A stretch of DNA of 17,345 bases from the IMG/VR virus record IMGVR_UViG_2713897073_000004. The stretch is one strand, 5' to 3'. Below the pieces are notes generated by a model. That model ran no database searches, was not told the origin of the DNA, and saw nothing but the letters and a program-made list of their open reading frames with translations. Shown here piece by piece: positions 1 to 16,382 of this stretch. This DNA comes from a virus (taxonomy: Duplodnaviria > Heunggongvirae > Uroviricota > Caudoviricetes). Both the position numbers and the translations under genes were made by a program. The stretch's first letter is position 1. Each line of letters begins with the position of its first letter.

Positions 1-153
1 ATGAAAAACATTGCAGCTATAAAACGTAATAACCGCAAGATTCACGCTCGTAAGTTCCTGTCTACGCCAGAGGGAAAAGCCTGGCTAGAGCGTAAACAGC
101 GAGAGAACGAAGAAAGAAAACTCCTTAGTGAGTTGAAATGGCTTAAGGATTGA
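1..153 (+). CDS. small hypothetical protein (50 aa), or the last 50 codons of a longer gene cut by the window edge
   Basis: ATG at position 1, open for 50 codons to TGA at 151-153 (MKNIAAIKRNNRKIHARKFLSTPEGKAWLERKQRENEERKLLSELKWLKD); basic and helical-looking; a strong hairpin follows 10 nt later. Absent from the ORF track because it is under 60 aa. Confidence 0.35.
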   Translation: MKNIAAIKRNNRKIHARKFLSTPEGKAWLERKQRENEERKLLSELKWLKD

Positions 154-162
154 ATCACCAGT

Positions 163-206
163 AGGCGCATAACACATCCAGCAATCAAAGATGTGTTTGT
201 GCGCCT
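163..206 (+). terminator. stem-loop after the first ORF; tentative intrinsic terminator
   Basis: AGGCGCATAACACATC (163-178), 11-nt loop, GATGTGTTTGTGCGCCT (190-206): about 16-bp imperfect inverted repeat starting 10 nt after the stop. The T-run (226-231) is 20 nt downstream rather than adjacent, so the terminator call is weak. Confidence 0.3.
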
Positions 207-703
207 GATAGTGAAATTATTAAAGTTTTTTAGTTAATGTAGCCATTGCATGAACGATGATCGCTAGTGAATCGATTTTATCTCGAGGGGTAAAATAGAT
301 GAGGTATATGATGGTAACAATTACAGCTAAAGTAATTGTGGTTCTGCAGGTTTTTAAAATGGATAAGATAAAGCGCATAGATACCCCCTATTGATTTAAC
401 AACAACAAGGTATCATTTATTTTTTATTGCATGCAATGTGCAAATTTTCACATATAATAGCTTACTATTCACTTTGCATGGTGTCAACAAGATGATGTGT
501 TGTTTTGTTTGATTTGTTCAAGATAATATTTCATTTTCTCATCTATATAACTTGTGTTTTAGATAATTTCACTAATTGTAAAAGTTACGTATTGCTTAAT
601 AGCTGCCTTTTTATCTGAAATCGGCGCAAACGTGATCAATGTTTAACGCGAAGATCAGCGGCGTCAGGTCCATGCAGCGACAATTCTCAAATATCAGGAG
701 GCA

Positions 704-1255
704 TTACGCTTCCTGCTCTTTCTTGATACGTTGCACCGTCTGTGTGCTGACACTGAAATCTTTTGCTACGCTCCGAATTGATCCACCATTCGCGAGAGCG
801 GCAGCAATTCCTGCTCGATCAATTGCTTTTCCATTACCACGTTTTGCTATACGCCCAGCGGCCTTAGCTGCCGCGATCCCTTCACGTTGACGCTCAAGCA
901 TCATTTCACGCTCCATTTGTGCCACTGCTGCAAGCACTGTGAGCATCATATTCCCTGCGGGAGAGTTCTTCCCTGTCTTAAAGTCTTCTTTATGGAAATG
1001 CACAGACACGCCGCGCTCTGTTAATTGCTCAACCGTTGCCAGAAGGTCGGCTGTATTACGACAAAGGCGATCAATACTATGGACGTGTAACACGTCACCC
1101 TCCCGCACATAGTTCATCATTGCCTCAAACTGTGGGCGCTGAGTGTTCTTGCCTGACGCTTTATCTTCAAAGACTTTATCAAGAGTTACTCCAGCTAATT
1201 GACGGTCTGTGTTTTGTTGCACAGTCGATACCCTAATGTATCCAATATTAGCCAT
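704..1255 (-). CDS. serine recombinase, resolvase/invertase family
   Basis: 185-codon minus-strand ORF. Probable start is the second ATG (1255, AAGGA about 8 nt upstream), giving MANIGYIRVSTVQQNTDRQ. N-terminal YIRVST motif with the nucleophilic serine, SIDRLCRN, AVAQMEREMMLERQREG core, and a C-terminal HTH (SIRSVAKDFSVSTQTVQRI). An alternative start at 1261 adds two residues. Confidence 0.88.
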   Translation of the reverse strand: MANIGYIRVSTVQQNTDRQLAGVTLDKVFEDKASGKNTQRPQFEAMMNYVREGDVLHVHSIDRLCRNTADLLATVEQLTERGVSVHFHKEDFKTGKNSPAGNMMLTVLAAVAQMEREMMLERQREGIAAAKAAGRIAKRGNGKAIDRAGIAAALANGGSIRSVAKDFSVSTQTVQRIKKEQEA

Positions 1256-1754
1256 TTTCATTTTCCTTCTGTGTTGATTTGTGTGTAGTGATTATTGATC
1301 GTGTTGATTAGGTGTGTAAAGGACTTTTTTCACTACGAAATTCGAAGGTTTTTAGTGTGGTGATTTAGCCTGCTTTATCACTACACGTCTTGCATGAGAA
1401 TCATGTAGTTACGTTTTGGTAAAATTAGCAAGCTATTAAATAGTGTGTTTATTTTGAAAAAATAATTTTTTGTTGCATTAAAGAAAACTTGTTCGACAAA
1501 TAATAGATTGATTTTTAATCAACAATTTCTGATAGTGCTCTGTAAGCCGCATTACATAAGGCTTTGCGAAAGTGATGTAAAAGTGAAGAAAGCTAACATT
1601 GCACTTTTTAAGCTACTTTTCATTGAATTTTTACGTAGAAATTACACAGGGATTAATCATCAATTAATCTTGAATTTAAGCCTGTTTTTTTAATTTTTGA
1701 TAGCAAGAAACACTTTTAGAAGATCATTGCACAGATGTTATGTGATAAATGGAT

Positions 1755-1878
1755 GTAACGATGGGTTACATTCAGCTATCTGAAATACTCTCTGTAAGAA
1801 ATTTGGTAGTAACGATATTACACATCGGTAGTAACGATACGTTACATCGGCAGATGATTGGTTGTAACGAAAGGTTAC
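1755..1878. repeat. cluster of four GTAAC-N5-GTTAC palindromic sites; candidate iterons or recombinase/regulator binding sites
   Basis: GTAACGATGGGTTAC (1755-1769), GTAACGATATTACAC (1809-1823, degenerate right half), GTAACGATACGTTAC (1831-1845, perfect), GTAACGAAAGGTTAC (1864-1878, perfect). Sites 2 and 3 sit inside a tandem 22-23-bp repeat GGTAGTAACGATA..TTACACATCGG. Centre-to-centre spacings are about 54, 22 and 33 bp. Confidence 0.6.
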
Positions 1879-2628
1879 ACAATAAGACTAACATCTATAA
1901 TACTAATAATAAAACTAACTATTAAACTATATAATATAATTCTTTTTATTTTTATAAGAATAATTATAGGGATACCCGTTAGGAAGTCTTCGAATATCCC
2001 TTAATCTATTGGCATTCGCCAGAACCTTGCACAAGTTAGAGTGTTAGTCGTTAGACTGCTTGTCATAACACATAGTTTTTGTTTGTTGATGTTAGTTAGT
2101 AGATCTATGTTCGCTAATACCGCTCACAACGAATATGTAATCTACTATGTGCAATAACCTTGTGTGCTACGCATTAGCGATGTTAGCACATAGACACAGA
2201 CAACAACCAACAACAAACAAAAAAGAATGGTTTTAGTAGTTGAAGGTTAAATAAGATTCTACCGCTTAAATCAAGCCGTAGGCGAGCTAAACGTATATAA
2301 GGTAGGGAAACACCTTAGCGGTAATAGATTAGCTCGTTATAGAGCTTCTGAGGAGCTTTACAGGTATTTTATAAGATGTCTGAAATCATAGTTTATCTAT
2401 CCACCATCTTTCCATCACCTGATAAATCAAAAATAAGCCCCTTAAATAAACCTCTGACGAGATAAACAGCCATTAGATAAGGCAATGTATTGCTTTTATC
2501 AAAACTTCGTTAGAACGCGTTTTAGAGCGTTTTAGACAATAATGAAGAATAGCACTACACAGGAGAGCACGAATTGCTAAGAAAAAATGTAAGTACATGA
2601 AAAAGATCAGATTTTTTATGAAAAGGTA

Positions 2629-2657
2629 TTGACAAACGTCTCTTTCTGTGCAATAAT
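2629..2657 (+). promoter_or_regulatory. sigma70-type promoter for the small-gene operon
   Basis: TTGACA (2629-2634), 17-nt spacer, AATAAT (2652-2657); consensus -35, 5/6 -10, optimal spacing; about 125 nt upstream of the first operon gene. Confidence 0.5.
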
Positions 2658-2781
2658 AGGTATTAGAGGGACAGGAATAGATTCTTATCCTCTAAATAAT
2701 TAAACCAATGCACCGCACTTTGAAGCCCAAGGCTTGCAAGGTGTTTTTTCTTTTAACCAAATAGAATAAGGAGGCTAATTA

Positions 2782-2958
2782 ATGAAATATTTTACTCCAC
2801 AGGATGTAGTAGAAGCCTGGAAACGTGGTGAGATCAACCGCTTTAAAGTAAGGATGTATAGAAACACCGCTCGCCGTTGTGGTTATCCAGAGCGTGAAAA
2901 ATGTTTTGACGATGCACTGAAAATTATTGATGAACTGCGTAAAGCTGAGAAAGAATAA
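2782..2958 (+). CDS. hypothetical small protein (58 aa), first gene of the AT-rich operon
   Basis: ATG 2782 preceded by AAGGAGG (2768-2774, 7-nt spacer); MKYFTPQDVVEAWKRGEINRFKVRMYRNTARRCGYPEREKCFDDALKIIDELRKAEKE, stop TAA 2956-2958. Not in the ORF track (under 60 aa). The minus-strand track ORF 2779-3012 is its antisense shadow. Confidence 0.6.
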   Translation: MKYFTPQDVVEAWKRGEINRFKVRMYRNTARRCGYPEREKCFDDALKIIDELRKAEKE

Positions 2959-2980
2959 TAGACAAGAGAAGGAGAAAACT

Positions 2981-3148
2981 ATGAGCGAAACCAAGAAACC
3001 AATTCCACGCACTTACCTACACGTTGACCCTGAAATTTTCAAGATTTTATTTTCTGAAGCCAAGAAAAGGCAAGTTATGGTCAGTGATTTGATGTTAGAA
3101 ATCATTACTGAAGCAGCAGAGAACATCAAACAAAAAAAGGGTAAGTGA
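2981..3148 (+). CDS. ribbon-helix-helix (CopG/Arc/MetJ-like) DNA-binding protein, 55 aa
   Basis: Start at the internal ATG 2981 of track ORF 2927-3148, with GAAGGAGA 5-6 nt upstream. MSETKKPIPRTYLHVDPEIFKILFSEAKKRQVMVSDLMLEIITEAAENIKQKKGK shows a beta-strand (RTYLHVD), helix A, short turn, helix B pattern typical of RHH proteins. Fold call is from pattern only. Confidence 0.5.
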   Translation: MSETKKPIPRTYLHVDPEIFKILFSEAKKRQVMVSDLMLEIITEAAENIKQKKGK

Positions 3149-3201
3149 TCCTCATTCACTTTAGTAGCGCATTAAGCGTGATTTATAAGGAGATAATTCT
3201 A

Positions 3202-3882
3202 ATGTCTAAAATTAAATTGATTCGTGAAAAACACCAGTATGTTGATAAACAAACAGGAGAAATTAAAGACCGAACTTTGAATATACCGCATTACTTTTGT
3301 GAGATTGAATTCATCTACTCCTCAAATATTGAGGATGGAAGAGCGAAGTTTAGTGCAGAAATGCAAAAATTATATTGCTATGTTTCAGATTGGGAGAAAT
3401 CAGGGGGGATATGTTTTGAAACACAAACGAAGTTAAGTAAGGTTTGTGGCTGTAGCCGTAAGACAGTTAATGAATTGATTGGTCTTATGATTAAAATCGG
3501 TCTTTTAGAAGAGGTCGGAGAACGAATCCCAAAACGTCCATTAAAATTACGTGCGCTACCTCTCACAGATGCACATATTACTCCCCCTAGAGAGTCATCA
3601 CTACCTGATCCTTCTGAGAAAGAAGACGAATCTAATGAAATATTGAATGTTTCCGAAATCATCCTTGAAGAAGAAACACAGGAATCAGCGTTCCCTGAGC
3701 GGCCCGAAATTTTTACTTGGCTTCTTTCCCTTGATAAGAAGAAACCACCGCACGAAGAAACAGAAGATTTTGTAAAACGTGTATTAGATTCAAAGAATAT
3801 CTATCTTGAGAAACAGGCTTTTCACGATCTGATAATATCTCTAAGAGAAAAAAGTGAAATATACGATTCGATACCCTTCTAG
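3202..3882 (+). CDS. winged-helix DNA-binding protein, HTH_36-like (replication-initiator/regulator type) with acidic C-terminal region
   Basis: Start at MSKIKLIRE (ATG 3202, AAGGAG 9 nt upstream); the track ORF starts earlier at 3145 with no RBS. KLYCYVSDWEKSGGICFETQTKLSKVCGCSRKTVNELIGLMIKIGLLEEV matches the HTH_36 pattern seen in phage/plasmid replication-initiation proteins. C-terminal half is E/D/P-rich. Confidence 0.55.
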   Translation: MSKIKLIREKHQYVDKQTGEIKDRTLNIPHYFCEIEFIYSSNIEDGRAKFSAEMQKLYCYVSDWEKSGGICFETQTKLSKVCGCSRKTVNELIGLMIKIGLLEEVGERIPKRPLKLRALPLTDAHITPPRESSLPDPSEKEDESNEILNVSEIILEEETQESAFPERPEIFTWLLSLDKKKPPHEETEDFVKRVLDSKNIYLEKQAFHDLIISLREKSEIYDSIPF

Positions 3883-3894
3883 GAGAATAAATAA

Positions 3895-4164
3895 ATGACT
3901 TATAACATCACTATAGGAAACAAAACTATTGAAATAACTGAAAGCGGATACAACATTTTAAAAGCTATTTTGGAAATAGAGTTTTCACCACCGACAGTGG
4001 TTAGCTTTTGCAGCTTAGGTTGCTACAGCACCCAACATGTGAACAATTGGTTAAGCCATTTTACATCGTTCGGTGTGCTGGATTATGAAGGGATTAACAG
4101 CACTACATTTCGTCTTTTGAAATTAAACAAAGATTTTGAATTGTTTATCACAAACAATCAATAA
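3895..4164 (+). CDS. hypothetical protein (89 aa)
   Basis: ATG 3895 with AGGAGA 8 nt upstream; 13 nt after the preceding stop; same strand and tight spacing as neighbours. Confidence 0.5.
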   Translation: MTYNITIGNKTIEITESGYNILKAILEIEFSPPTVVSFCSLGCYSTQHVNNWLSHFTSFGVLDYEGINSTTFRLLKLNKDFELFITNNQ

Positions 4165-4260
4165 CAACAGATCGGGCAATACATATGGCAAATGCATTTA
4201 TGGCGATATTCATCGTAACTATGGCATTCAGTTTTTATAATCCACATAAAAAGAGGGAAA

Positions 4261-4644
4261 ATGGGAAGAAAGAAAAAGAACAACTTAAAACGTATTGAAA
4301 AAAACAGTAATTTCAATTCAACAAGACAACGTCCACCGACACACACCAATAACGAAATTCCAGGGGAAGAGATAATCTTTATTCTTGAAACAGAATCCCC
4401 TGAATTAAGTGATCAAGAATTAGAAATAATCCAGTCAATGCCAGGCGTTTACTTTCGCCCAAGAACAAGGAAACAAACTATCATTTCTGATGGCACTCTG
4501 AAACGTTGGCAGCTTTTAGGGTTTAGCTCCTATCATCATTTTTTGGGATTTAACGCTTTCAATAATTGTGTAGGTGGTGCATCGGAAGTCGATCTGATGG
4601 CTCATTTAGAAGATACATTAGCTTCTAACAAACGTTCTAACTAA
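4261..4644 (+). CDS. hypothetical protein (127 aa), basic N-terminus
   Basis: ATG 4261 preceded by AAAAAGAGGGAAA; N-terminus MGRKKKNNLKRIEKN is highly basic. Confidence 0.55.
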   Translation: MGRKKKNNLKRIEKNSNFNSTRQRPPTHTNNEIPGEEIIFILETESPELSDQELEIIQSMPGVYFRPRTRKQTIISDGTLKRWQLLGFSSYHHFLGFNAFNNCVGGASEVDLMAHLEDTLASNKRSN

Positions 4645-4702
4645 TAAAAATGATGGGCGTATGTATAAGCGCCCAATGAAAATATTCAATAAAGGAAAAA
4701 TA

Positions 4703-4933
4703 ATGATTAACTATCAACTATTAGAAACAACATTTTTTAAAGAAGCAAAACAACTTGCAGAAGTGTTTATTTCACTGGCTGAACGAGCAAAAGAAGAAAA
4801 TGATTTTGCCTTGCTTGATGATGTGCTGGATGACATTGCAACCTATCGTATACCGCTACAGATTGCACTAAACAAGGCTAAACAGATTCAGCAAGAGATG
4901 GAATCAGCAGATCAAGGAGAGATTGCACAATGA
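4703..4933 (+). CDS. hypothetical helical protein (76 aa)
   Basis: Start taken at internal ATG 4703 (MINYQLLETTFF...), preceded by AAAGGAAAAA; the track ORF begins at 4661 with no RBS. Stop overlaps the next start (ATGA). Confidence 0.5.
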   Translation: MINYQLLETTFFKEAKQLAEVFISLAERAKEENDFALLDDVLDDIATYRIPLQIALNKAKQIQQEMESADQGEIAQ

Positions 4934-5241
4934 CAGACAACATTCTGGAAGTTATGGACACTCTTTCGGATCGGATGATCACCCTACAGACACGTATCAA
5001 TCAAGCCTATTCAGATTTATGCGATTACACGCTCTCTCAATGCGTAATTAGCTTAATGAAGGTGAATGTAAGCCTTGACGATTTTATCTCTCTGGTGAGC
5101 GATTTAGAGCAGCTATCTGAGGACGATGCCAAGATGTGCACTCAAACCATCACAGACACCGCCAGCACGTTAAAGGCTGCAAGTGAAGAGATTCAGCAAT
5201 TAGTAGATGATTTAGCAAAAAGTGCTATTTTCTCTAAATGA
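4930..5241 (+). CDS. hypothetical acidic helical protein (103 aa)
   Basis: ATG 4930 overlaps the upstream stop in ATGA (translational coupling); last gene of the AT-rich operon. Confidence 0.55.
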   Translation: MTDNILEVMDTLSDRMITLQTRINQAYSDLCDYTLSQCVISLMKVNVSLDDFISLVSDLEQLSEDDAKMCTQTITDTASTLKAASEEIQQLVDDLAKSAIFSK

Positions 5242-6205
5242 TAATGAAAATCATTTGCATTTATAATGATTTTGTTATATAATAATTTTAGGGGTAGATA
5301 AAAAGGTTTTGACTGGTGTTAATCCTTTTCCTGTCATAAATCCCTGCATATGGAAGGTGATAGCCTCAAGGGTTGAGTGGCATTAACCTCTAACAAATAT
5401 TACCTTCCATCTCTCAAGAAGTTTTAGAATAATCATAACTCCCTCTTTGATTGTTGATTGTTTCTACGTTGTGTTGATGAATGTTGTTAGGCATTGTGCT
5501 TAATTTTGATAAAAGCGGGTAGGTGTTATCTCCTTGCCCTTCTCGCTCTTATTTTTCATCTGTGCTTATCCTAAAGCTCCTTATTTTGTCCGAAAACATT
5601 AAAGAGCCTTACACTGATAGTTATATTTTATAACTATTTACTAACATCACTAAACTCATTATTTAATGACAGAAGTTAGTAACAGAATAATCTATTAAGT
5701 TGTTGTCAAAAACAATCATCTGCATAGCGTTAGCCGCAAGCAGAGAGAGTTTAACTAAGAATGGAAGTATTGATAAGTATACCAGTTTACAAAAAAGATT
5801 TTTTCTAAATTGCAAATTCTTTCCAAAGCGGTAGATTACTGTGGTGTAGTTAATCCCTATTAAAATTTAATCTGTGAGTAGATTGGAATAGTGATTCCTT
5901 AAAATCTGACTGGTGCATCCACACCATGAAAGATAGCGGTTTAGCCCACCGCAACCAGAATATCAGGTCTTAGTGATTCCAGTGGGGCAACTCCTAAGAG
6001 CCTTTCTTCTAAGATCTGATATTCACTCTTTAAGCATATCATCAAGTATATTTAAAAAGTGTATTTGCTGATATGTTTAATCCTCTTATAGTTTAACTTA
6101 TCAATTATGTAATTGCCCGCACGTTAAAGCCCCTTTGCTGGTCAGAATTAACCTCTTACGGCATTGGGGCTTTTTATTTGTCTGGCACTAACAGGAACGT
6201 TATTT

Positions 6206-6403
6206 ATGAAACAAGAAATGATTATCAGCAAAGACGGGGAAACGATGATTGTTAGTGATGAAAACCTCATTAAGGTTGCCGCACTGTTGGGAGTTACTCC
6301 TGAAAGTCTTCATTCTACCACTGCTCAATTATTTAAATCGGCTGATGCGGTTAGTCTTGCTGATGCCCTTAAATCTAAAATTAAACAACTGAAAGGAAAA
6401 TAA
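6206..6403 (+). CDS. hypothetical protein (65 aa), first gene of cargo operon
   Basis: Start taken at ATG 6206 (MKQEMIISKDGE...), with AGGAA about 9 nt upstream; the track start at 6164 lies inside a GC hairpin/T-run and lacks an RBS. Confidence 0.5.
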   Translation: MKQEMIISKDGETMIVSDENLIKVAALLGVTPESLHSTTAQLFKSADAVSLADALKSKIKQLKGK

Positions 6404-6407
6404 TCTT

Positions 6408-6791
6408 ATGGCTAACCCATATGGAAAATTAAAAGCAGTGAATGCGGATAATTCCCGTTCACGCTGTAAGGTAGTAGCTTACGCTGCTGATCCAGTGCTG
6501 CAAGATCGCCTCGTCAAACTGGCTTCACCTCTCACTGACGATCTTATTGTCGGGGCTTTGCTGAAAGCCGATGGCACCAAAGCAACAACCGCATCTGATA
6601 TTGCTCACGTAGTAGTTGAACCGGCTTATGAAGGACAGGAAAGCGTAGTGGTTGCACATCCTACTTTCGTTATTCTGGCTGAAGATGGGATTGAATTTAA
6701 CAGCATGGAAAAGGCAAGTGTTATTGCAAAACTGCAATCTCTCGGCTTTGTAATTGCTGGTTATGAAGAACTTGCGATCCCTACGACTTAA
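6408..6791 (+). CDS. hypothetical protein (127 aa)
   Basis: ATG 6408 with AAAGGAAAA upstream, 4 nt after the previous stop; codon usage is more balanced than in the AT-rich operon. Confidence 0.65.
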   Translation: MANPYGKLKAVNADNSRSRCKVVAYAADPVLQDRLVKLASPLTDDLIVGALLKADGTKATTASDIAHVVVEPAYEGQESVVVAHPTFVILAEDGIEFNSMEKASVIAKLQSLGFVIAGYEELAIPTT

Positions 6792-6805
6792 CAAGGAAAA
6801 TAATA

Positions 6806-7837
6806 ATGAATGATTTATCAACATATTTTGGCGTTAATACTGCGGTAGTAACTCCATTTGCTTATGAGAATGCACTTAATACCCTGATTACTAATCTCGA
6901 TCTGTTCGATGTGCAATATCATACAGAAAACAGCATTCTTCTTACCGACCTGATTGATCAGTTTGTGCAGGTAGCTGGGGAAACCTCGCCTTACACTCAA
7001 AGCAGCTGGAACGCCTCTAAACGTCAGGAATGGTCAAACAAACTTTTCCAGATGAAGCACGTCGGCAGTATTAACGCTGTTACTTCTCGTGACCTGGAAC
7101 AATACAGCCGCCAATATCCAAACCGTTCTGATGCTATGCTGGTAGCGGTTAATGATTTCTCTGAGGCTCATTACCGTTCACACGCAAACCGTGTTGAAGT
7201 GGATCTGATTACCGCGCTGCTGGGACTGAAAGTTGAATCTGAATATGCCGGACAAGGTGATCTCGACTTCCTCGACGGTCAGGCTAAAACCACGGTACCC
7301 GCTATCGACTTTGCATCGACTAGTGTTAACCCGTTCCTTGCTATTCGTAAAGCGGTGCGCTTACAGAGTGAAAAGCTGGGGTCTGGTCTTGCTGCAAAGC
7401 GAACTGGTGTAATTATCTTTGCTGCTGGCGCTGCTGCTGATGGTTTGTCATCTAACCCGCTGATCAGTGACATGGTGAAATATGCAGGTGATGCGAGTGC
7501 TACGGCCCTGTTTACCCGTATGGTTGATTCTAACCCAGCCTATGACTCTTTCCAGATTGGTGGGATCACTGTTATTGATGTGTCAATGTTTCCTGAGATT
7601 GTTGCTCACATCGGAGAGAACGGTTTCGCAATTGTTCCGGTAATGGATAAGTCGGCACAGTGTTACCAGCTTCATAGCGGCGTTGGTGTGCGTCATGCTG
7701 AGTTAGGTCAAGATGCCGTGTTACATCACCAATATCTAATCAAGGATGAATTCCAATTCCCATCTGTGGTTACTGAGACATCTTATCTGCCAGTAAACAA
7801 CATTCCGCAAGCTATCATCTTCGGATCTGCTGCGTAA
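6806..7837 (+). CDS. hypothetical protein (343 aa), no recognisable catalytic motif
   Basis: ATG 6806 with CAAGGAAAA upstream; long clean ORF 14 nt after the previous stop. No Walker, HUH or nuclease motif found by eye. Confidence 0.75.
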   Translation: MNDLSTYFGVNTAVVTPFAYENALNTLITNLDLFDVQYHTENSILLTDLIDQFVQVAGETSPYTQSSWNASKRQEWSNKLFQMKHVGSINAVTSRDLEQYSRQYPNRSDAMLVAVNDFSEAHYRSHANRVEVDLITALLGLKVESEYAGQGDLDFLDGQAKTTVPAIDFASTSVNPFLAIRKAVRLQSEKLGSGLAAKRTGVIIFAAGAAADGLSSNPLISDMVKYAGDASATALFTRMVDSNPAYDSFQIGGITVIDVSMFPEIVAHIGENGFAIVPVMDKSAQCYQLHSGVGVRHAELGQDAVLHHQYLIKDEFQFPSVVTETSYLPVNNIPQAIIFGSAA

Positions 7838-7977
7838 TAAAGCATTAATAGACGATTCCCCATAGGGGCAATAAGGTAAGGGATAATCATATAAGTAAAA
7901 TATGCGCTGTCTCTTGCCCTTATTTTTTTTCTACTGTCTACAGACCCAAATAAAAATATATATGTGAGAGAAAACCA

Positions 7978-8190
7978 ATGAACGCAGAAAATTCACAGGC
8001 ATTAATTCTTAAATCTGTAAAAGAACTGGCAGCTATTAGCGAGGAATCAGTTATAAACACATCGGCGCTTTGCCGCCTTTTAGAAATTGATGCAAATAAT
8101 GTGCGGCAGCGTGTGTTTCAGACTGGATGCAGCACTTTTGAAGCAATTGCATACTACTGTTCTAAAAACAATAACAAACAACAATTATAA
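7978..8190 (+). CDS. small putative HTH protein (70 aa)
   Basis: ATG 7978; segment NTSALCRLLEIDANNVRQRV looks like a helix-turn-helix; sits directly upstream of the 613-aa gene. Confidence 0.5.
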   Translation: MNAENSQALILKSVKELAAISEESVINTSALCRLLEIDANNVRQRVFQTGCSTFEAIAYYCSKNNNKQQL

Positions 8191-8208
8191 TGCAGGGAAA
8201 CTATTAGA

Positions 8209-10050
8209 ATGCTTGAAATTAATGCCGCACGTATCTCGAACGTTATAACATTTACGACCGACTCCAAAAGCTTACAGAAAGCTAAGAATGAAGTAGAAAA
8301 ACTTCGTAAACAAATGGCGGCGGTGAAAGATATAGAATTGCGTGTTAAGACACATAAACAATCAACCGCTAAAGCAAAAAAAGACGTAGACGATATTGCT
8401 AAAAAGCAAGCACAGGCAGATAAAGCCAATGCTAAAGCACAATTAGCCGCTCAACGTGTAGTTGCAAGAGAACAAAAAGCCCTGGCAGCACGGAAAGAGA
8501 AGGCTGAATTAAAGCTTTTAGACGTTGGAGCAAGCATTAGCGCATTGCACCGTCTTTCTGTAGCGGAACAATATAAAGCTATTGCACAGGCTAGAGAAAT
8601 TGCCCTCCAATATGAAAGAGGCGCTATTAGTCTGGCACGTATGAATAGCCAAATGAAACGCCTACAACAGCAACAACGTAAGATTAATGGCAATCGTAAC
8701 GCTCACGCTAAAGCCTATGCACCTGTTAAGGGTAGCGGGAGTATTGGCGGCGGTGCTGCGGCTGTTATGCTGGGCGGCTTAGGCGCTGGCGCTGCATATA
8801 TGGCTATGAGCAAAGCCTCTGAATTTGTTACTAACAGCTTTGCGAATGCTGAAACGCTGGGTGAATTGTATAGCCGTGCCAAGCTGGGCGGTGTAGACGT
8901 TAACCAGATGAACAATATTGAGCAATGGGCGTATAAAAACGGCGTTGATTCAATGATGGGCGAACAAGGTAAACGTAAGTATCTCGATCAGATGAAAGAT
9001 GTGCGTGAACGTGCAACCAAATCTTATGATGAAGCTGAATATGTAGTTGATAAGAAAACTGGTAAAGGAGAATGGAAGGGCGGCGATAGCGGCATCAATA
9101 CTTTAATGAATGAAGGATTCCTAACTAAAAAGGATCTAAAAGACTTTGCTGATAATCCGGCTGGTCTGGTTAGTAAAGCAGTTCAGGGAATGGTAGCTAA
9201 AGGCTATTCAGATGCACAAATCGGTAGTCGTCTGGAAGATCTGGCTGATGATTTGATGCTCACCTCTAAATACTGGACACGCTCCGCTAAAGAAGTGGAA
9301 CAATCAGCACGAGAACAACGAGAATCAGGGCGCTGGGTAACACAGGCACAACAGGAAAGCGTTATTAAATTCCGTGAACTGAATAATGCACTTAGTGGGC
9401 TTTCTGACTCACAAGGGATCGCCTTTGTTGATGGCTTTATGAAATCTCTTGATCCGAAAGTGATTGAAGAGTTTAAAAAGAGCATGGTTGCAATGCTGCC
9501 AATGTTTACCAAATTAGGCGAGGCTGTAGGTGGTCTGCTTAATGCGATCATGAAAACTATCAACTGGCTGATGAAAAACGACGAGAAGACGGCAGCTATT
9601 CAGAAGAATTTAGGTGATGCACCGCCACTATCTAACGAAGGAATGAAGCAGAATCTTTCTAATCTCACTCCTGATCAATATAAAGGCGCTGGCACCGGAA
9701 CAATTAAGCCAGATAACAGCAATTCCCTGGTTAACACTATTAAAAGCTGGTTTATGCCAGAAGAAACGGTAGGTGGGGCACAGGCTGTAAATCAATACAG
9801 TCTCGAAGGACAAAACATTGCAAATCTGAAACAGAGTGCAGCACAACAAGCTTTCAAGGCTCCTTCTTACACCTTTGCACCTGTTATTAACTTCAATCCA
9901 GAATTACAAGTAAATGCAGAAGTGCCGCTAACTATCGAATCAGACACCGGACGATTGAGCGAATTTATCGACTTCAAATCAAAGGCATCTTCCGCTGAGT
10001 TTAGCAAGCTATTAACGCTTGGTGTTATGTCAGGCGGGTCAACCTATTAA
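8209..10050 (+). CDS. large hypothetical protein (613 aa): N-terminal K/A/Q-rich coiled coil, glycine-zipper hydrophobic segment, large C-terminal domain
   Basis: ATG 8209 with AGGGAAA upstream. Residues about 20-165 are K/A/Q/E-rich heptad-like sequence; residues about 175-201 are GSGSIGGGAAAVMLGGLGAGAAYMAMS (nt about 8731-8811), a Gly/Ala-rich membrane-type segment; the remaining roughly 400 aa are mixed. Composition recalls tape-measure or pilot/ejection proteins, but no homology is established. Confidence 0.8.
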   Translation: MLEINAARISNVITFTTDSKSLQKAKNEVEKLRKQMAAVKDIELRVKTHKQSTAKAKKDVDDIAKKQAQADKANAKAQLAAQRVVAREQKALAARKEKAELKLLDVGASISALHRLSVAEQYKAIAQAREIALQYERGAISLARMNSQMKRLQQQQRKINGNRNAHAKAYAPVKGSGSIGGGAAAVMLGGLGAGAAYMAMSKASEFVTNSFANAETLGELYSRAKLGGVDVNQMNNIEQWAYKNGVDSMMGEQGKRKYLDQMKDVRERATKSYDEAEYVVDKKTGKGEWKGGDSGINTLMNEGFLTKKDLKDFADNPAGLVSKAVQGMVAKGYSDAQIGSRLEDLADDLMLTSKYWTRSAKEVEQSAREQRESGRWVTQAQQESVIKFRELNNALSGLSDSQGIAFVDGFMKSLDPKVIEEFKKSMVAMLPMFTKLGEAVGGLLNAIMKTINWLMKNDEKTAAIQKNLGDAPPLSNEGMKQNLSNLTPDQYKGAGTGTIKPDNSNSLVNTIKSWFMPEETVGGAQAVNQYSLEGQNIANLKQSAAQQAFKAPSYTFAPVINFNPELQVNAEVPLTIESDTGRLSEFIDFKSKASSAEFSKLLTLGVMSGGSTY

Positions 10051-10097
10051 TCATCACTGTGGGGCTGTTTAGCCCCCTTAAATAAGGATTACAAATT

Positions 10098-10775
10098 ATG
10101 GCAATGGGTCCGTTAACCATTGGTCGCCCGACTGAGGCGAAAATCAACAGCACAAGCAACGATAGCAACGGTAGAACAACTAAAGGGGGTAACGGCTTTG
10201 CGATCATTACCTCTAATCTCGGCAGTGGTGCAAATGCTGCTTACAATGACTACCAGGCATTATCATTTGATAGCGTGGAATCGACGAGAGTTAGCAGAAA
10301 TGCAGACGTTACAAGCTATGCTGTCGAATCAGGATCAGAAGTTAGTGATCATGTTCAAATACGGAATAACAAGTTCACATTACAAGGGCGTATCTCTGAA
10401 ACCGTATTGAAGCTCAATCCTGATATGATTAAGAATGCTGGAATTAACGGCAATCGACGTATGCTTATGCTTGAATACCTAAATCAGTTGATGGACAGTC
10501 GCCAACCTTTCCTACTTGTCACTGAGTTAAAAAATTATGACAACGTTGTGTTAGTTGGCATGTCTTACGCAGAAGAAGCAAGCGAAAGCCTATTGTTTAC
10601 TCTTGATTTTGAGCAAATCCGTCTTGTCTCTAAAGCAACTACAAGCGCAATTGCGGTAAAAACAGCACCAAATAAATCTGTAGGAGGCCAGGTTAAAATG
10701 CAGGTAAATACAACAGAACAGAAAAATCAAAAAAGCCCAGGGCAAGACGTTGTAACGCCAGTATTTAAACAATAG
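10098..10775 (+). CDS. hypothetical protein (225 aa), S/T/N/G-rich N-terminus
   Basis: ATG 10098 with AAGGA upstream; last gene of the cargo operon; the overlapping alternate-frame track ORF 10120-10410 is rejected. Confidence 0.7.
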   Translation: MAMGPLTIGRPTEAKINSTSNDSNGRTTKGGNGFAIITSNLGSGANAAYNDYQALSFDSVESTRVSRNADVTSYAVESGSEVSDHVQIRNNKFTLQGRISETVLKLNPDMIKNAGINGNRRMLMLEYLNQLMDSRQPFLLVTELKNYDNVVLVGMSYAEEASESLLFTLDFEQIRLVSKATTSAIAVKTAPNKSVGGQVKMQVNTTEQKNQKSPGQDVVTPVFKQ

Positions 10776-10816
10776 CCTTAAACGCCTATGAAACGCTCTG
10801 TAACGAGATAATCATA

Positions 10817-10848
10817 AAAGAGGCATCAGCCTATATTGAAGCCTCTTT
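10817..10848. terminator. hairpin between convergent genes; candidate bidirectional terminator
   Basis: AAAGAGGC (10817-10824), 16-nt loop, GCCTCTTT (10841-10848), between the cargo operon end (10775) and the integrase stop (10856); A/T-rich on both flanks. The loop is large, so stability is uncertain. Confidence 0.35.
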
Positions 10849-10855
10849 ATTACGT

Positions 10856-12133
10856 CTATAGCGTTGTTTTACGCCTTAAATTTGATTTTTTATTGATTGA
10901 TAAGCCTTTCTCTATTTCAGGATAGCGTAAAAGCTCAATATATTTTTTAAGCTCTACTGGAGAAGCTGCATTTTTGCTATATGTGCGGAATGTTTCTGTA
11001 TTGCCGCGTGTATGGCCCAGGAGAAGGGCGATCCTGTCTTCTGGAATTTGATTTCGATCAAGAAGCTGTGCTACTCCGTGTCTCAGAGAATGAAACACTT
11101 TCCTTTCTGTTCCCTTTTCCCCTAAAGCCTTTCGTTTAGCTCTTGTAAATCGTTGTGTATGCCACGTAGAGCGTTTACCGTCAGCACGCTCTGTAATGCT
11201 GGCGTGATAGAACAAAAAGCCATTGTGAGGCTTTTCACGAAGAGATAACACCAATGGAGTGATAAGGCTATGCACAGGCACAAGACGTGCCGCAGCTTTC
11301 GTTTTTCCCTGTGTGATTTCAAAACACAGCACACCTTCGATCTCTTTCACATCGTCTATTGTGAGACTTGCTATCTCATTGATCCGCATCCCTGTATATA
11401 AACCGATAAGACATAAAGCCGTCATTTCTTTGTTTTCTGCTGAATTACCGGAAAATACTTGCAACACCTGCAATAGCTCTTTGTTAGAAAATGCCTCGTA
11501 GCTCTCTCTACTTTGTGCCACATCAAGCCTATGCCCTCGCCAGGGGGAGAGCGCCCTTTCTGGCGCATCGTGGTAACGTGATGAAGCTAATTCCCATAGC
11601 TGGGCCATTGGGCTGATATAATTTGCAATTGATTGTTGTGAAAGAGTTTTTTGCATGTGTTCAATCCAGCCTGTAACAGTGGTGCGGCTTACATCTTGCA
11701 ATGCAATATCAGGCTTTTTACGGTAGGAGAGAAACATCTCTACCGCTTTTCTTGCCTTAGCTAAAGTGGCTGGCTTCTTCTTCGTGCTGTTAATTGTCAG
11801 GTAGATTTCAAGAATTTTAAGCAATGACGGACACGAAGACGCTGTATCTTGCATTCTGGTAGCTGTTTTGGCGTATTTAGCCTTACTGCGTAACAGTTCC
11901 AGCGTGTTTTCTATTGTGCTGTTTACAGGGGCAACACTCTCCCGTAAGCAATGGTATTCATCTGCAATCTGATCACGCTTTCTACGTGCAACACGAAGAT
12001 TACTTGTGTGCAGACTTCTGACAAACGTCCTTTTTCCTTCAAAAAAGGGCTGCATATACACAGGCAGCGTGATCCTTAAATAGTAGTTACCGTAAGAATC
12101 ACAGATTAAGTATTGGTTAGGCTTGTATCTCAT
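10856..12133 (-). CDS. tyrosine site-specific recombinase/integrase with DUF6538-like N-terminal domain
   Basis: Catalytic signature of tyrosine recombinases: TGMRINEIASL (Arg), VFHSLRHGVAQLL (HxxR), LLGHTRGNTETFRTYS (His...Tyr). N-terminus YLICDSYGNYYLRITLP...GKRTFVRSLHTSN fits the YYFRRR-type arm domain. Start placed at the internal ATG 12133 (GGAG 5 nt upstream); the track start at 12190 has no RBS. Confidence 0.85.
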   Translation of the reverse strand: MRYKPNQYLICDSYGNYYLRITLPVYMQPFFEGKRTFVRSLHTSNLRVARRKRDQIADEYHCLRESVAPVNSTIENTLELLRSKAKYAKTATRMQDTASSCPSLLKILEIYLTINSTKKKPATLAKARKAVEMFLSYRKKPDIALQDVSRTTVTGWIEHMQKTLSQQSIANYISPMAQLWELASSRYHDAPERALSPWRGHRLDVAQSRESYEAFSNKELLQVLQVFSGNSAENKEMTALCLIGLYTGMRINEIASLTIDDVKEIEGVLCFEITQGKTKAAARLVPVHSLITPLVLSLREKPHNGFLFYHASITERADGKRSTWHTQRFTRAKRKALGEKGTERKVFHSLRHGVAQLLDRNQIPEDRIALLLGHTRGNTETFRTYSKNAASPVELKKYIELLRYPEIEKGLSINKKSNLRRKTTL

Positions 12134-12310
12134 AAAATCTCCGGCTAAAGTGTCGGAGCGTTTGTAATGTGAAAATTGATTGTGACGCATAGAAAATGAT
12201 TATTTTTCTATAAGATTCAATCAATTAGTAATGGTCGTAGTGATGGCATTAACACGAGATTAATCGAGTGTTTTACTCCTATTATCGGCACCATTCAAAC
12301 ATCTCCCCAA

Positions 12311-12396
12311 GTCTACTAAAGTCTTTCAAAACCCCTTATAATCCACGTATTAAAGCCCCGTTCGTCTTTTGACGTCTACTAAAGTCCCTCAAAATC
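12311..12396. repeat. pair of 23-bp direct repeats between the two integrase genes; candidate att core or integrase arm sites
   Basis: GTCTACTAAAGTCTTTCAAAACC (12311-12333) and GTCTACTAAAGTCCCTCAAAATC (12374-12396): 20/23 identical, first 13 nt exact, 63 bp apart. Confidence 0.6.
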
Positions 12397-12458
12397 TACG
12401 GTCAGATGGGGGTACTTATGGGGGTATTTGCTGTTCGGTTTAGTGGAGGTACCCCCAA

Positions 12459-13673
12459 GTGAAACTCAATGCCCGTCAAATAGACACAGCCAAGCCAAAA
12501 GAGAAGGCTTACAAGCTGGCCGATGGTGGCGGTTTGTATCTCTTGGTAAAACCTAATGGAGGTAAATACTGGCGACTTAAATATCGTGTAGCAGGTAAAG
12601 AGAAGCTATTGGCACTAGGTGTGTATCCTGAGGTTACTCTAGCCGATGCTCGGGCAAAACGTGAAGATGCGAAAAGAGGTATCGCTGGTGGTATCGATCC
12701 GATGGAAGCGAAACGAGAGGAAAAGATTGCCCGGGAAACGCAGTTAAACAACACCTTCAAAGATATTGCCCTTGAGTGGCACAGCAGCAAATTAAAAAAA
12801 TGGTCTGCTGGTTATGCTTCAGACATCCTCGAAGCCTTCAACAAAGATGTGTTCCCTTACATTGGCAAAAAACCAATCGCCGAAATCAAACCACTTGAAC
12901 TTCTGAATGTGCTGCGGCGCATCGAGGGGCGCGGTGCGACAGAAAAAGCCAAAAAAGTGAGGCAGCGGTGCGGGGAAGTTTTCCGCTATGCAATAGTCAC
13001 TGGTCGCGCAGAGTATAACCCTGCACCAGACCTTACTAGCGCGATGCAAGGCCATGAATCTAATCATTACCCTTTCCTTACGACCAAAGAATTACCTGAT
13101 TTTTTCAAGGCATTATCCAGTTACTCAGGAAGCGCATTGGTTGTTATGGCGGCTCGCCTACTGATTATCACCGGCTTGCGAACTGGCGAACTACGTGGCG
13201 CATTATGGGATGAAATTGATTTCAACAAGGCTATATGGGAGATACCCGCTTCACGTATGAAAATGCGGCGGCCTCATATTGTGCCATTGTCTGAGCAGGC
13301 TCTTTCGCTTATTGGGAAGATTAGAGAAATAACAGGCAATTACCCTCTTATGTTTCCCGGGCGCAATGATCCAAGGAAAACAATGAGTGAGGCCAGCATA
13401 AACCAAGTGTTTAAGCGCATTGGCTACGCTGGACGTGTAACTGGTCATGGGTTCCGACACACTATGAGCACGATTTTGCATGAGCAGGGCTATAACACCG
13501 CGTGGATAGAAACGCAGCTCGCTCACGTTGATAAGAACTCAATTCGTGGCACATACAACCATGCGCAATATCTGGATGGACGGCGGGAGATGCTTCAATG
13601 GTATGCCGACTATATGGATTCTCTCGAGCATGGCGGAAATGTGGTGCATATGGTGTTTGAAAAACACGCATGA
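12459..13673 (+). CDS. int: P4-family tyrosine integrase
   Basis: GTG start 12459 with GGAGG 9 nt upstream. N-terminal arm-binding domain typical of P4-type integrases (AKPKEKAYKLADGGGLYLLVKPNGGKYWRLKYR), catalytic Arg (ITGLRTGELR), HxxR (GHGFRHTMST), and C-terminal LAHVDKNSIRGTYNHAQYLDGRREMLQWYADYMD with the catalytic Tyr. Confidence 0.92.
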   Translation: MKLNARQIDTAKPKEKAYKLADGGGLYLLVKPNGGKYWRLKYRVAGKEKLLALGVYPEVTLADARAKREDAKRGIAGGIDPMEAKREEKIARETQLNNTFKDIALEWHSSKLKKWSAGYASDILEAFNKDVFPYIGKKPIAEIKPLELLNVLRRIEGRGATEKAKKVRQRCGEVFRYAIVTGRAEYNPAPDLTSAMQGHESNHYPFLTTKELPDFFKALSSYSGSALVVMAARLLIITGLRTGELRGALWDEIDFNKAIWEIPASRMKMRRPHIVPLSEQALSLIGKIREITGNYPLMFPGRNDPRKTMSEASINQVFKRIGYAGRVTGHGFRHTMSTILHEQGYNTAWIETQLAHVDKNSIRGTYNHAQYLDGRREMLQWYADYMDSLEHGGNVVHMVFEKHA

Positions 13674-13980
13674 AACAACTGGACAAGTATACAGAGGTTT
13701 ACTAAAGTATAGGGGAGTAGATTGATAAAAACTCACAGAGGATTGCTATTTAACAGTTAGCCTTGGAGAAGGGCAATCGCTCTTTTATAAACGAAGGTGT
13801 ATTGAGCCTTCTACGCTGCTGAAAAGCGGAATGTTCTTTAACAGGCTTTGGCGCTGACAAAGCGCAATTGTTCTTTAAAACTACTGGATGTCACGCCTAA
13901 TAGCGTGATCCTGCCGAAATGCAGGGTAGCTCTACCCTTGTGGAGCAAACAAACCAAAACAATCTGACTATCTTTTATAA

Positions 13981-14013
13981 AAGACCGCAATATGTTTTTC
14001 ATATTGTGGTCTT
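13981..14013. promoter_or_regulatory. inverted repeat upstream of alpA; candidate operator
   Basis: AAGACCGCAATATG (13981-13994), TTTTT, CATATTGTGGTCTT (14000-14013): 14-bp arms, 13/14 complementary, about 90 bp upstream of the alpA start. A second palindrome GGGTAG-CT-CTACCC lies at 13924-13937. Confidence 0.4.
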
Positions 14014-14100
14014 TGGCGTATTCGACATTTGACGCAAATAAAACTCTCGCCATTCGTTGCAGGAGGGGGTTATTGCGTCATTAGTACAGGATATTAATAA

Positions 14101-14304
14101 ATGGCTAATTACAATTCATTAATTCGTCTCTCTGAAGTTCAAAGGCGAACTGGTTATAGCAAAGCATGGATTTATCGTCTTATTAGTCAGGGGAGGTTCC
14201 CTAAACAGGTAAAAATTGGAAGTCGGGCAATTGCTTTTGTTGAGTCTGAAATAGATGAATGGATTGAGAAGTGTATATTAGAATCTAGAGACGAGGTGGC
14301 CTGA
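14101..14304 (+). CDS. alpA: AlpA/Vis-family transcriptional regulator (excisionase-like HTH)
   Basis: 67 aa; LIRLSEVQRRTGYSKAWIYRLISQGRFPKQVKIGSRAIAFVESEIDEWI is the classic AlpA signature; positioned just downstream of a P4-type int, as in P4-like islands. Confidence 0.85.
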   Translation: MANYNSLIRLSEVQRRTGYSKAWIYRLISQGRFPKQVKIGSRAIAFVESEIDEWIEKCILESRDEVA

Positions 14305-15756: not shown

Positions 15757-16382
15757 CCGCCCAGAAGAAGATATTTTCACTGGCTGGTATGTCGCCAAAA
15801 TCCAGCAATATGACAGCAAAGTCAGACATTAATACAGCAGATACAAGCAAAGTTTATCATTTGCTGGTGGTAGGAGCGGATGCCTTAACTATGTCAGAAA
15901 TTACGGTCGATGGTGTTAGCGTTGAGAAGGTCAGCGGCTATGCCAGAGAATTTCTGGTCGTAGATGACCTGTTCTGCTCGTGTAGTGACTCCACAAAAAC
16001 ATTCGTCCACGCGCGTGACGTTAACGAAATGAGCGCGATGTACTGTGCTTCTGGTTCTTCCAATAGTGAGTTTTCGGAGTCCATAAAAAAGAGCTTGCCG
16101 TTATGCGGCAACACGGTTTATGGTTATAAGGCACCTCATAAAACGGGTGCCGGGATTGGCGTCCTAAAAATTCTGAAGGCGACATATGACGCGCCGAGCG
16201 TCTTTTTTTATGTCGTAGGTCTGACTCACCCATTTTTTGGGCGTTGGTGTATAATCCAGCGCCTTTGTCAATCAATGGTGGCTCAGGCGGGGGCTTCTTC
16301 GGAAGCGCCGGTATCCATTCAGAGCCGGTTACGCCAACCCTGTCTGGGCTACCACCAGCGAAATTGGCGTTTCCGGTGGTAG
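15750..16382 (+). CDS. hypothetical protein; 3' boundary doubtful because the ORF runs through a terminator, a promoter and a structured RNA
   Basis: ATG 15750 overlaps the upstream stop (ATGCTAA), supporting a real 5' end. The last roughly 65 codons (from about 16188) overlap a GC hairpin plus T7 run, a TATAAT box and a stem-loop-rich region, and translate to low-plausibility sequence ([17 protein letters not shown]...RNWRFRW). Confidence 0.4.
16188..16209 (+). terminator. intrinsic terminator-like hairpin plus T-run
   Basis: GACGC (16188-16192), loop GCCGA, GCGTC (16198-16202), then TTTTTTT (16203-16209). Short GC-rich stem directly followed by seven T. Confidence 0.5.
16250..16255 (+). 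promoter_or_regulatory. candidate -10 element (TATAAT) for the leader RNA and downstream operon
   Basis: Perfect TATAAT at 16250-16255, about 40 nt after the terminator T-run; no good -35 hexamer at 16-18 bp spacing, so the promoter call is weak. Confidence 0.3.

Follow-up and report, generated by a model that had tools for sequence, protein, structure and literature searches.

The binding sites of a recombination directionality factor (RDF, or excisionase) have a recognisable hallmark: direct repeats one helical turn apart, which the protein binds cooperatively and with bending of the DNA. Two described systems are particularly useful for reading the locus studied here. In KplE1, Int and TorI both repress int, and it is the promoter-proximal block of TorI sites that mediates the repression of intS. 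In P4, the AlpA-family protein Vis binds attP, as seen by EMSA and footprinting, bends it and is needed for excision. Both Int and Vis of P4 repress Pint, and a high-affinity IHF site has been reported in the P4 int regulatory region. Cali et al., in 2004, reportedly saw Vis footprint two boxes ('Box I and Box II') between int and the core.

A much closer relative is EcCIMP1 of Escherichia coli MP1. According to its published account, excision and circularisation need the canonical alpA as well as the integrase, deletion of alpA abolishes both processes, and an alpA reporter fragment (-449 to +50) displays positive autoregulation (PMC11773190). The boundaries of EcCIMP1 have been sequenced, and within the passages covered only a 10-bp core repeat, TCCTATTATC, is defined, with neither arm sites nor AlpA boxes (PMC11773190). 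We found no AlpA footprint for an EcCIMP1-type island in the published literature. What the papers on Shewanella CP4So report is H-NS bound at the promoter of alpA, and not sites for AlpA.

Here we investigate an attL site of this kind in a stretch of 17,345 nucleotides, the whole of which is referred to as the window. A preliminary description of the window had singled out two 23-bp direct repeats next to an integrase start. Are these repeats att cores, stacked by successive insertions? Are they the arm-type sites of the integrase? Or, do they bind another protein, encoded by the host or by the island itself?

The 23-bp repeats, the thrW locus and the att core

Repeat 1 (GTCTACTAAAGTCTTTCAAAACC, 12311–12333) and repeat 2 (GTCTACTAAAGTCCCTCAAAATC, 12374–12396) are read directly from the plus strand. 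They are identical at 20 of 23 positions and start 63 bp apart, as first described. When the 268-bp intergenic region was shuffled 2000 times with its dinucleotides preserved, pairs of 23-mers no more than 100 bp apart were at most 18/23 alike and none reached 20/23, in agreement with the original judgement that a chance occurrence is very unlikely. The repeat pair is real and far beyond chance. The preliminary description had also suggested looking for further copies, including at the far ends of both elements. A search with up to three mismatches returned none in the window or in a 36-kb homologous locus, L001, which contains the entire right-hand element and covers its far end; the chance expectation is 0.

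The repeats are located between two tyrosine recombinase genes at a hot spot for islands in E. coli, the thrW (tRNA-Thr) site that follows proA. In strain E66, which is 99.4% identical across the junction, thrW is followed by a 13-kb element ending in a minus-strand recombinase and then by a second element with a plus-strand integrase, alpA, antA, ash and a TOPRIM/DUF927 primase. The thrW location, between proA and the yagU-side genes, and the gene order int-alpA-antA-ash-primase match those of EcCIMP1. The right-hand integrase (12459–13673, plus strand, GTG start) has the Pfam domains Arm-DNA-bind_3, Phage_int_M and Phage_integrase. It is identical to IntS_1 of EcCIMP1 at 403 of 404 positions and about 49% identical to the Sf6/IntS-type integrases. 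Further to the right, alpA (14101–14304, plus strand; Pfam Phage_AlpA, E = 7e-20) encodes a winged-helix excisionase/regulator of 67 amino acids (WP_000035054.1), which is our candidate for the protein that binds in the attL arm. It is identical to EcCIMP1 AlpA at 67/67 positions, and its PDB matches are an AlpA-family protein (8c3t) and, weakly, TorI (1z4h). The attL site is the same as that of E. coli MP1 except for two spacer bases. Judged by sequence identity, the right-hand element is an EcCIMP1-type phage-inducible chromosomal island, because Int, AlpA and attL agree to this degree and the integration is at thrW.

The window itself yielded no tRNA in a tRNA scan, the real thrW being about 0.8 kb beyond its left edge. 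It does contain a 19-bp copy of the tRNA-Thr (thrW) 3' end, ACTCCTATTATCGGCACCA, at 12275–12293 on the plus strand. This copy is identical to the corresponding end of the real thrW in L001, and the tRNA similarity stops upstream of 12275. The 19-bp core serves both elements, the left one as attR and the right one as attL, and the published EcCIMP1 repeat TCCTATTATC falls inside it. The right-hand element ends in a degenerate copy of the core (CCTATTATCG-CACCA; L001 35158–35176).

Several features of this site would suit repeats that are stacked or remnant att cores, or the duplication scar of a tandem insertion. Islands do stand in tandem here, the duplicated thrW end is 18 bp upstream of repeat 1, and MP1 has tandem arrays at thrW. 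However, the duplicated thrW segment comprises 12275–12293 only and has nothing in common with the repeats, and equivalent boxes are present at eight different tRNA targets. The attL adjoins an intact tRNA gene in E. coli MP1, where it is near-identical, and in Escherichia sp. L005. Both have the repeats in the absence of the left-hand element, which refutes the reading as cores or scar and leaves its probability next to nil. The repeats are therefore a property of the island attL, and not, as had been described, of the junction between two integrases.

The left-hand island (window 1–12274, L001 5059–18126) places 13 kb between the real thrW and the satellite. At its right end is the DUF6538 and Phage_integrase tyrosine recombinase (Pfam; 10856–12190, minus strand, RefSeq-annotated start 12132), and E66 has a serine-recombinase-family gene in this island. 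It also encodes a Dit-like tail or baseplate protein and large ORFs without a Pfam match. A query including the junction was at least 80% covered in only 71 of 1343 matching E. coli genomes. Just upstream of the RefSeq start of the recombinase is an inverted repeat (12174–12196 and 12204–12226; 23 nt, 78% complementary, 7-nt gap), a possible operator or arm of the left-hand element's own att site. Additionally, a tandem 22-bp repeat (GGTAGTAACGATATTACACATC + GGTAGTAACGATACGTTACATC, 1805–1848), which looks like an iteron or operator, is found amid several GTAACnnnnnGTTAC inverted motifs (1750–1880). On the satellite side, Rfam matches above the gathering score to isrK (16131–16208, plus strand, 59.9 bits) and C4 antisense RNA (16271–16359, plus strand, 76.2 bits) are inside or adjoin the ash-family gene, and this region is presumably the satellite's immunity RNA module.

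Organisation of the attL arm

The repeats are parts of two larger boxes, each comprised of three hexamers (RTCTAY) in direct repeat at a 10-bp phase. Box A (12301–12326, plus strand) has ATCTCC at 12301, GTCTAC at 12311 and GTCTTT at 12321. Box B (12374–12399, plus strand) has GTCTAC at 12374, GTCCCT at 12384 and ATCTAC at 12394. Repeat 1 is made up of the second and third hexamers of box A plus CAAAACC. Repeat 2 is made up of the first and second hexamers of box B plus an A-rich link, and spans most of that box. The 63-bp start spacing would correspond to about six helical turns. When the window and the whole 36-kb L001 were scanned for phased triplets, using a matrix built from other loci only, box B scored highest (23.2) and box A second (18.5), whereas the maxima in shuffled sequence averaged 10.4 and did not go above 18.5.

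We compared 79 related Enterobacterales loci, which are related to one another phylogenetically and have Int identities of 61–98%. Together with P4 they use eight target tRNAs: Thr, Arg-tct, Arg-cct, Gly, SeC, Ser, Phe and, in P4, Leu. In 67 of 68 loci, 113–115 bp separate the tRNA CCA from the first arm repeat, and the same layout at fixed spacing recurs in about 70 related attL sites and in P4. Across 42 non-redundant relatives the arm holds two islands of conservation, which are boxes A and B, the latter being the strongest in the arm, and the spacer between them is variable. The conservation in homologous junctions that one would look for is thus seen in the boxes. In most relatives, box A and box B are only 11–14/23 alike. 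The phased hexamer, and not the whole 23-mer, is therefore the conserved unit. In the nearest relatives of the window the whole 23-mers are 17–21/23 alike, with both boxes changing together. For example, the second hexamer starts with GTC in both boxes of the window, with GTT in both boxes of L007, L008 and L013, and with GTA in both boxes of L006. Of the exact phased pairs of each locus's own hexamer class counted over 1.34 Mb, 47 fall in attL, 24 are in the stretch between int and alpA and 3 are in other places; by rough arithmetic from motif frequency, about 3 in total would be expected by chance.

Between the boxes, at 12340–12352 on the plus strand, AATCCACGTATTA matches WATCAANNNNTTR at 12 of 13 positions as read from the sequence. 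This may be an IHF site, as a weak inference.

The arm ends in a different kind of repeat. Two tandem 12-mers, ATGGGGGTACTT and ATGGGGGTATTT (12406–12429, plus strand), contain GGGGGTA and are probable Int arm-type sites P'1 and P'2. An inverted probable arm-type site (12450–12456, minus strand; TACCCCC on the plus strand) adjoins the RBS GGAGG (12445–12449) and the GTG start. Nearly all relatives have the 12-bp period of the arm repeats, and an inverted copy adjoining the start codon is also found in relatives, P4 and KplE1. A tandem GGGGGTA pair is present just inside attR as well, both in L001 (35078–35096) and in MP1. In the five relatives with attR in the retrieved DNA, attL and the attR arm agree in motif class, which is GGGGGTA, GGGGGCA or TGTATAG. 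An RNA hairpin of GGGGGUA with UACCCCC over the int RBS was no better than in shuffles (z = -1.0). GGGGGTA occurs in addition at L001 7460 and 7482, without a counterpart at the corresponding position of the window.

The class of arm motif follows the N-terminal 90 residues of Int. L017 and L018–L020 have the C-terminal part of Int in common (82–83% identity to the window) and identical hexamer boxes. From L017 to L018–L020, identity to the window in the N-terminal part declines from 78% to 64–66% and the arm motif changes from GGGGGTA to GGGGGCA. This is an apparent module swap of the 200 bp upstream of int and Int residues 1–90. In the loci of the TGTATAG class, N-terminal identity to the window is 44–58%. 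Because the GGGGGTA repeats occur on both arms, match the P4 and KplE1 arm sites and track the Int N-terminal domain, it is probably they, rather than the 23-mers, that are the arm-type sites.

Could the 23-mers nevertheless be bound by the integrase N-terminal domain, as the preliminary description had suggested? They are in the attL arm next to int, and heterobivalent integrases use repeated arm sites. However, the GGGGGTA 12-mers already fill this role, being present on both arms and matching the P4 arm repeats and the KplE1 P' sites, and neither 23-mers nor hexamer boxes were seen in the attR arms checked. No hexamer boxes were found near attR in L001, in the attR arms of L024 and L072 (read by eye) or inside the island boundary in MP1. 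The core of the hexamer is TCTA or TCAA, uniform over all positions of both boxes within a locus, and this class does not follow Int. It is polyphyletic in the Int tree, in which thrW-TCAA integrases are 69–71% identical to thrW-TCTA integrases and only 61–63% identical to selC-TCAA integrases. The hexamers are also untouched by the swap of N-terminal domain and arm motif between L017 and L018–L020, which argues against Int as the protein that binds them. We regard the arm-type reading of the 23-mers as very unlikely. What stands of the earlier proposal is that the repeats are integrase-adjacent, putative recombination-related protein-binding DNA in an att arm; they are neither cores nor, probably, Int arm sites.

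Box A of another attL (TTCTAACGTCTCCCCAAGTCTACTCAAGTATTTAAAAACC) is found on the minus strand of the MP1 locus (L085 15660–15730) directly after the attR core of EcCIMP1, and a truncated integrase pseudogene comes next. What the EcCIMP1 paper calls the 'adjacent island' is therefore a decayed tandem member of the same integrase/attL family.

The protein that would bind the hexamers

Host bending proteins are part of all such intasomes, and an IHF-like site is present between the boxes. The repeats might therefore be suspected of binding a nucleoid protein of the host (IHF, Fis or H-NS), or of being simply bent A-tract DNA. However, the motif (TCTA, TCAA or TCCG) varies within the same host species and at the same tRNA. 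Among thrW islands within E. coli/Shigella, for example, the window and Shigella L027 differ in class, and such a difference at one site in one species argues against a host factor. Nor do the hexamers fit the IHF consensus, and direct phasing at 10 bp fits head-to-tail binding of monomers. We rejected this reading as highly improbable because the hexamer class varies within one species at one site.

The architecture instead resembles that of RDF boxes. The direct repeats are about one helical turn (10–11 bp) apart. The boxes (12301–12399) are placed between the core (12275–12293) and the arm-type sites (12406–12456), on one arm only. Additionally, the element encodes a small winged-helix RDF required for excision, given that its AlpA is identical to that of EcCIMP1.

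The hexamer class also follows the type of AlpA, with one exception. TCTA loci encode a type-1 AlpA with a conserved RRTGYSKAWIYRL helix-turn-helix and 56–81% identity to the AlpA of the window. TCAA loci, in two separate Int clades, encode a TorI-like type-2 AlpA (DKWIYKL...GRMSRW). The type-2 alpA adjoins int in the thrW clade and is at the far island end in L075 and L077 of the selC group. The exception is L012 (Leclercia sp., 9800–10000 and 12423–12794), which has a type-2 AlpA together with TCTA in box B and a CT-rich stretch in place of box A. This may be a recombinant or decaying island. Because of L012, and because many of the loci, which are phylogenetically related, have no alpA detected within the retrieved DNA, the association is suggestive and not proven.

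Some other regulator, from the island or from the helper phage, might use the boxes as operators controlling the int promoter or assembly of the intasome. The hexamers are clearly element-specific and conserved, the mismatch in L012 and the loci without detected alpA leave room for such a protein, and the islands encode further DNA-binding proteins: AntA, Ash and PerC. On the other hand, in most loci alpA alone among the other element genes was recovered beside int (in L075 and L077 it is close to the far end), two Int clades show the hexamer class going with the type of AlpA, and the homologous KplE1 boxes bind the RDF. We consider another regulator unlikely.

The 23-bp repeats are best read as belonging to paired AlpA excisionase boxes in attL, like the KplE1 TorI sites and those of P4 Vis, that may also act on the int promoter. 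We would give this reading a probability of roughly 0.6. The assignment to AlpA draws on position, phasing, homology of architecture and co-variation.

In the mechanism that we propose, a helper phage would induce alpA. Monomers of AlpA would bind the six phased hexamers cooperatively and bend the arm, jointly with IHF at 12340–12352, and Int, held on the arm-type sites by its N-terminal domains, would reach the core sites, leading to attL x attR excision. With box B over the probable -35 element of int and the first arm-type site over the -10 element, AlpA and Int might also damp int transcription, as in KplE1 and P4. Box B overlaps the place where the family has TTGAAA, which is a candidate -35, and where P4 has TTGAAA-18 bp-CATAAT. 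The first arm site covers TACATT or CATAAT in the relatives and P4. In the window the equivalent promoter hexamers (TCAAAA, 18 bp, TACTTA) are poor, and a scan of 12100–12560 for the σ70 consensus returned no promoter. The promoter is thus placed by position only. The regulatory half is the weakest part of the proposal and may not apply here, since in the PICI EcCICFT073 AlpA left int promoter activity unchanged.

A hairpin between int and alpA (13983–14011) has a 12-bp stem (GACCGCAATATG tttttc ATATTGTGGTC) with a run of A on one side and a run of T on the other, and resembles a bidirectional terminator. If so, the alpA promoter would be in the last 90 bp, or alpA would depend on read-through.

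The third-best triplet in the window and L001 is a degenerate inverted block just after the int stop (13697–13722, minus strand; ATCTAC-tccc-CTATAC-ttta-GTAAAC). Its score of 16.0 is within the range of the shuffles. In 19 relatives, an exact GTCTACnnnnGTCTAC pair is present on the minus strand about 30 nt past the stop, in each case +1246 from the int start (L005 11246–11261). The attL boxes and this block together bracket the int gene, and the block falls within the -449 to +50 alpA reporter fragment of EcCIMP1. Directly downstream of the hexamer block in L005 (11276–11343, plus strand) is a match to the Rfam family RF02996, 'int-alpA RNA' (46.7 bits, E = 3.5e-8). The conserved GGCTATGTCTAGGCTGATCCCCGAAAACCCGTACACC of this region recurs in many relatives and is absent from the window, where 12150–14150 had no match to an Rfam family even at E = 1.

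Is there, then, a readable AlpA code, with RTCTAY for type 1, RTCAAY for type 2 and rTCCg for P4 Vis, and is int bracketed by AlpA sites, the post-int block being next to the int-alpA RNA motif in many relatives? We consider this possible but doubtful. If true, a single protein may turn on the alpA operon and at the same time loop out or insulate int, so that excision is coupled to induction. We found no description in the literature of int bracketed by AlpA sites.

Comparison with lambda, P4, KplE1 and EcCIMP1

What results is an attL map for a recently characterised EcCIMP1-type satellite: core, two putative AlpA boxes, an IHF-like site and three probable arm-type Int sites. With it comes a predicted AlpA motif across about 70 enterobacterial islands at eight tRNA genes. 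Both can be used in annotating island boundaries in thrW tandem arrays and in designing excision and AlpA-binding experiments. The conserved block after int adds to the value of the map. No new mechanism is involved, as the design has already been worked out for KplE1 and P4.

The general resemblance extends to lambda Xis at X1-X1.5-X2, 186 Apl and P2 Cox. These too are small winged-helix proteins on direct repeats one helical turn apart; they bind cooperatively, with bending, on one att arm, and their sites often double as promoter operators. However, their proteins and motifs are unrelated in sequence to those seen here, and lambda has a single block on the int-distal P arm, whereas there are two int-proximal blocks here.

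P4 is much closer in layout. It has a tRNA-derived core, an arm of about 114 bp in which two groups of phased hexamers surround an IHF-type site, two arm repeats of 12 bp in tandem and an inverted one where int starts. Its other arm has a further tandem pair. The GenBank record of P4 annotates 12-mers of the GGGGGCA type as 'attP arm sequence repeats', at positions equivalent to those of GGGGGTA. The P4 hexamers, ATCCGA and GTCCAA in one group and GTCTTC, GTCCGT and ATCCGG in the other, resemble the mapped TorI sites. In contrast, the P4 proteins are only about 39% (Int) and 37% (Vis) identical to those of the window, the hexamers are rTCCg and not RTCTAY, the arm motif is GGGGGCA and not GGGGGTA, and the target is leuX rather than thrW. 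P4 is also a P2-dependent satellite with another gene set.

The attL of KplE1/CPS-53 has the same order of parts: core, TorI block I1-2, TorI block I3-5 (at a phase of about 10 bp) next to the -35 element, and IntS arm-type sites over the -10 element and up to the ATG. The TorI sites are on attL only. The Int of the window is about 49% identical to the IntS-type integrase group, and its AlpA is a weak sequence match to TorI. The differences are in the TorI motifs (GTTCG, GATCG and GTCCG), the IntS motif (GGGTAAAA) and the target, argW. Also, torI is at the far end of the prophage and not next to int, and KplE1 is a P22/HK620-like prophage rather than a satellite.

EcCIMP1 of E. coli MP1 (ISME J 2025, PMC11773190) is essentially the same element with the same attL, also at thrW. 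The difference is one of context: EcCIMP1 adjoins the intact tRNA gene in MP1, whereas in the present locus a second island of 13 kb intervenes.
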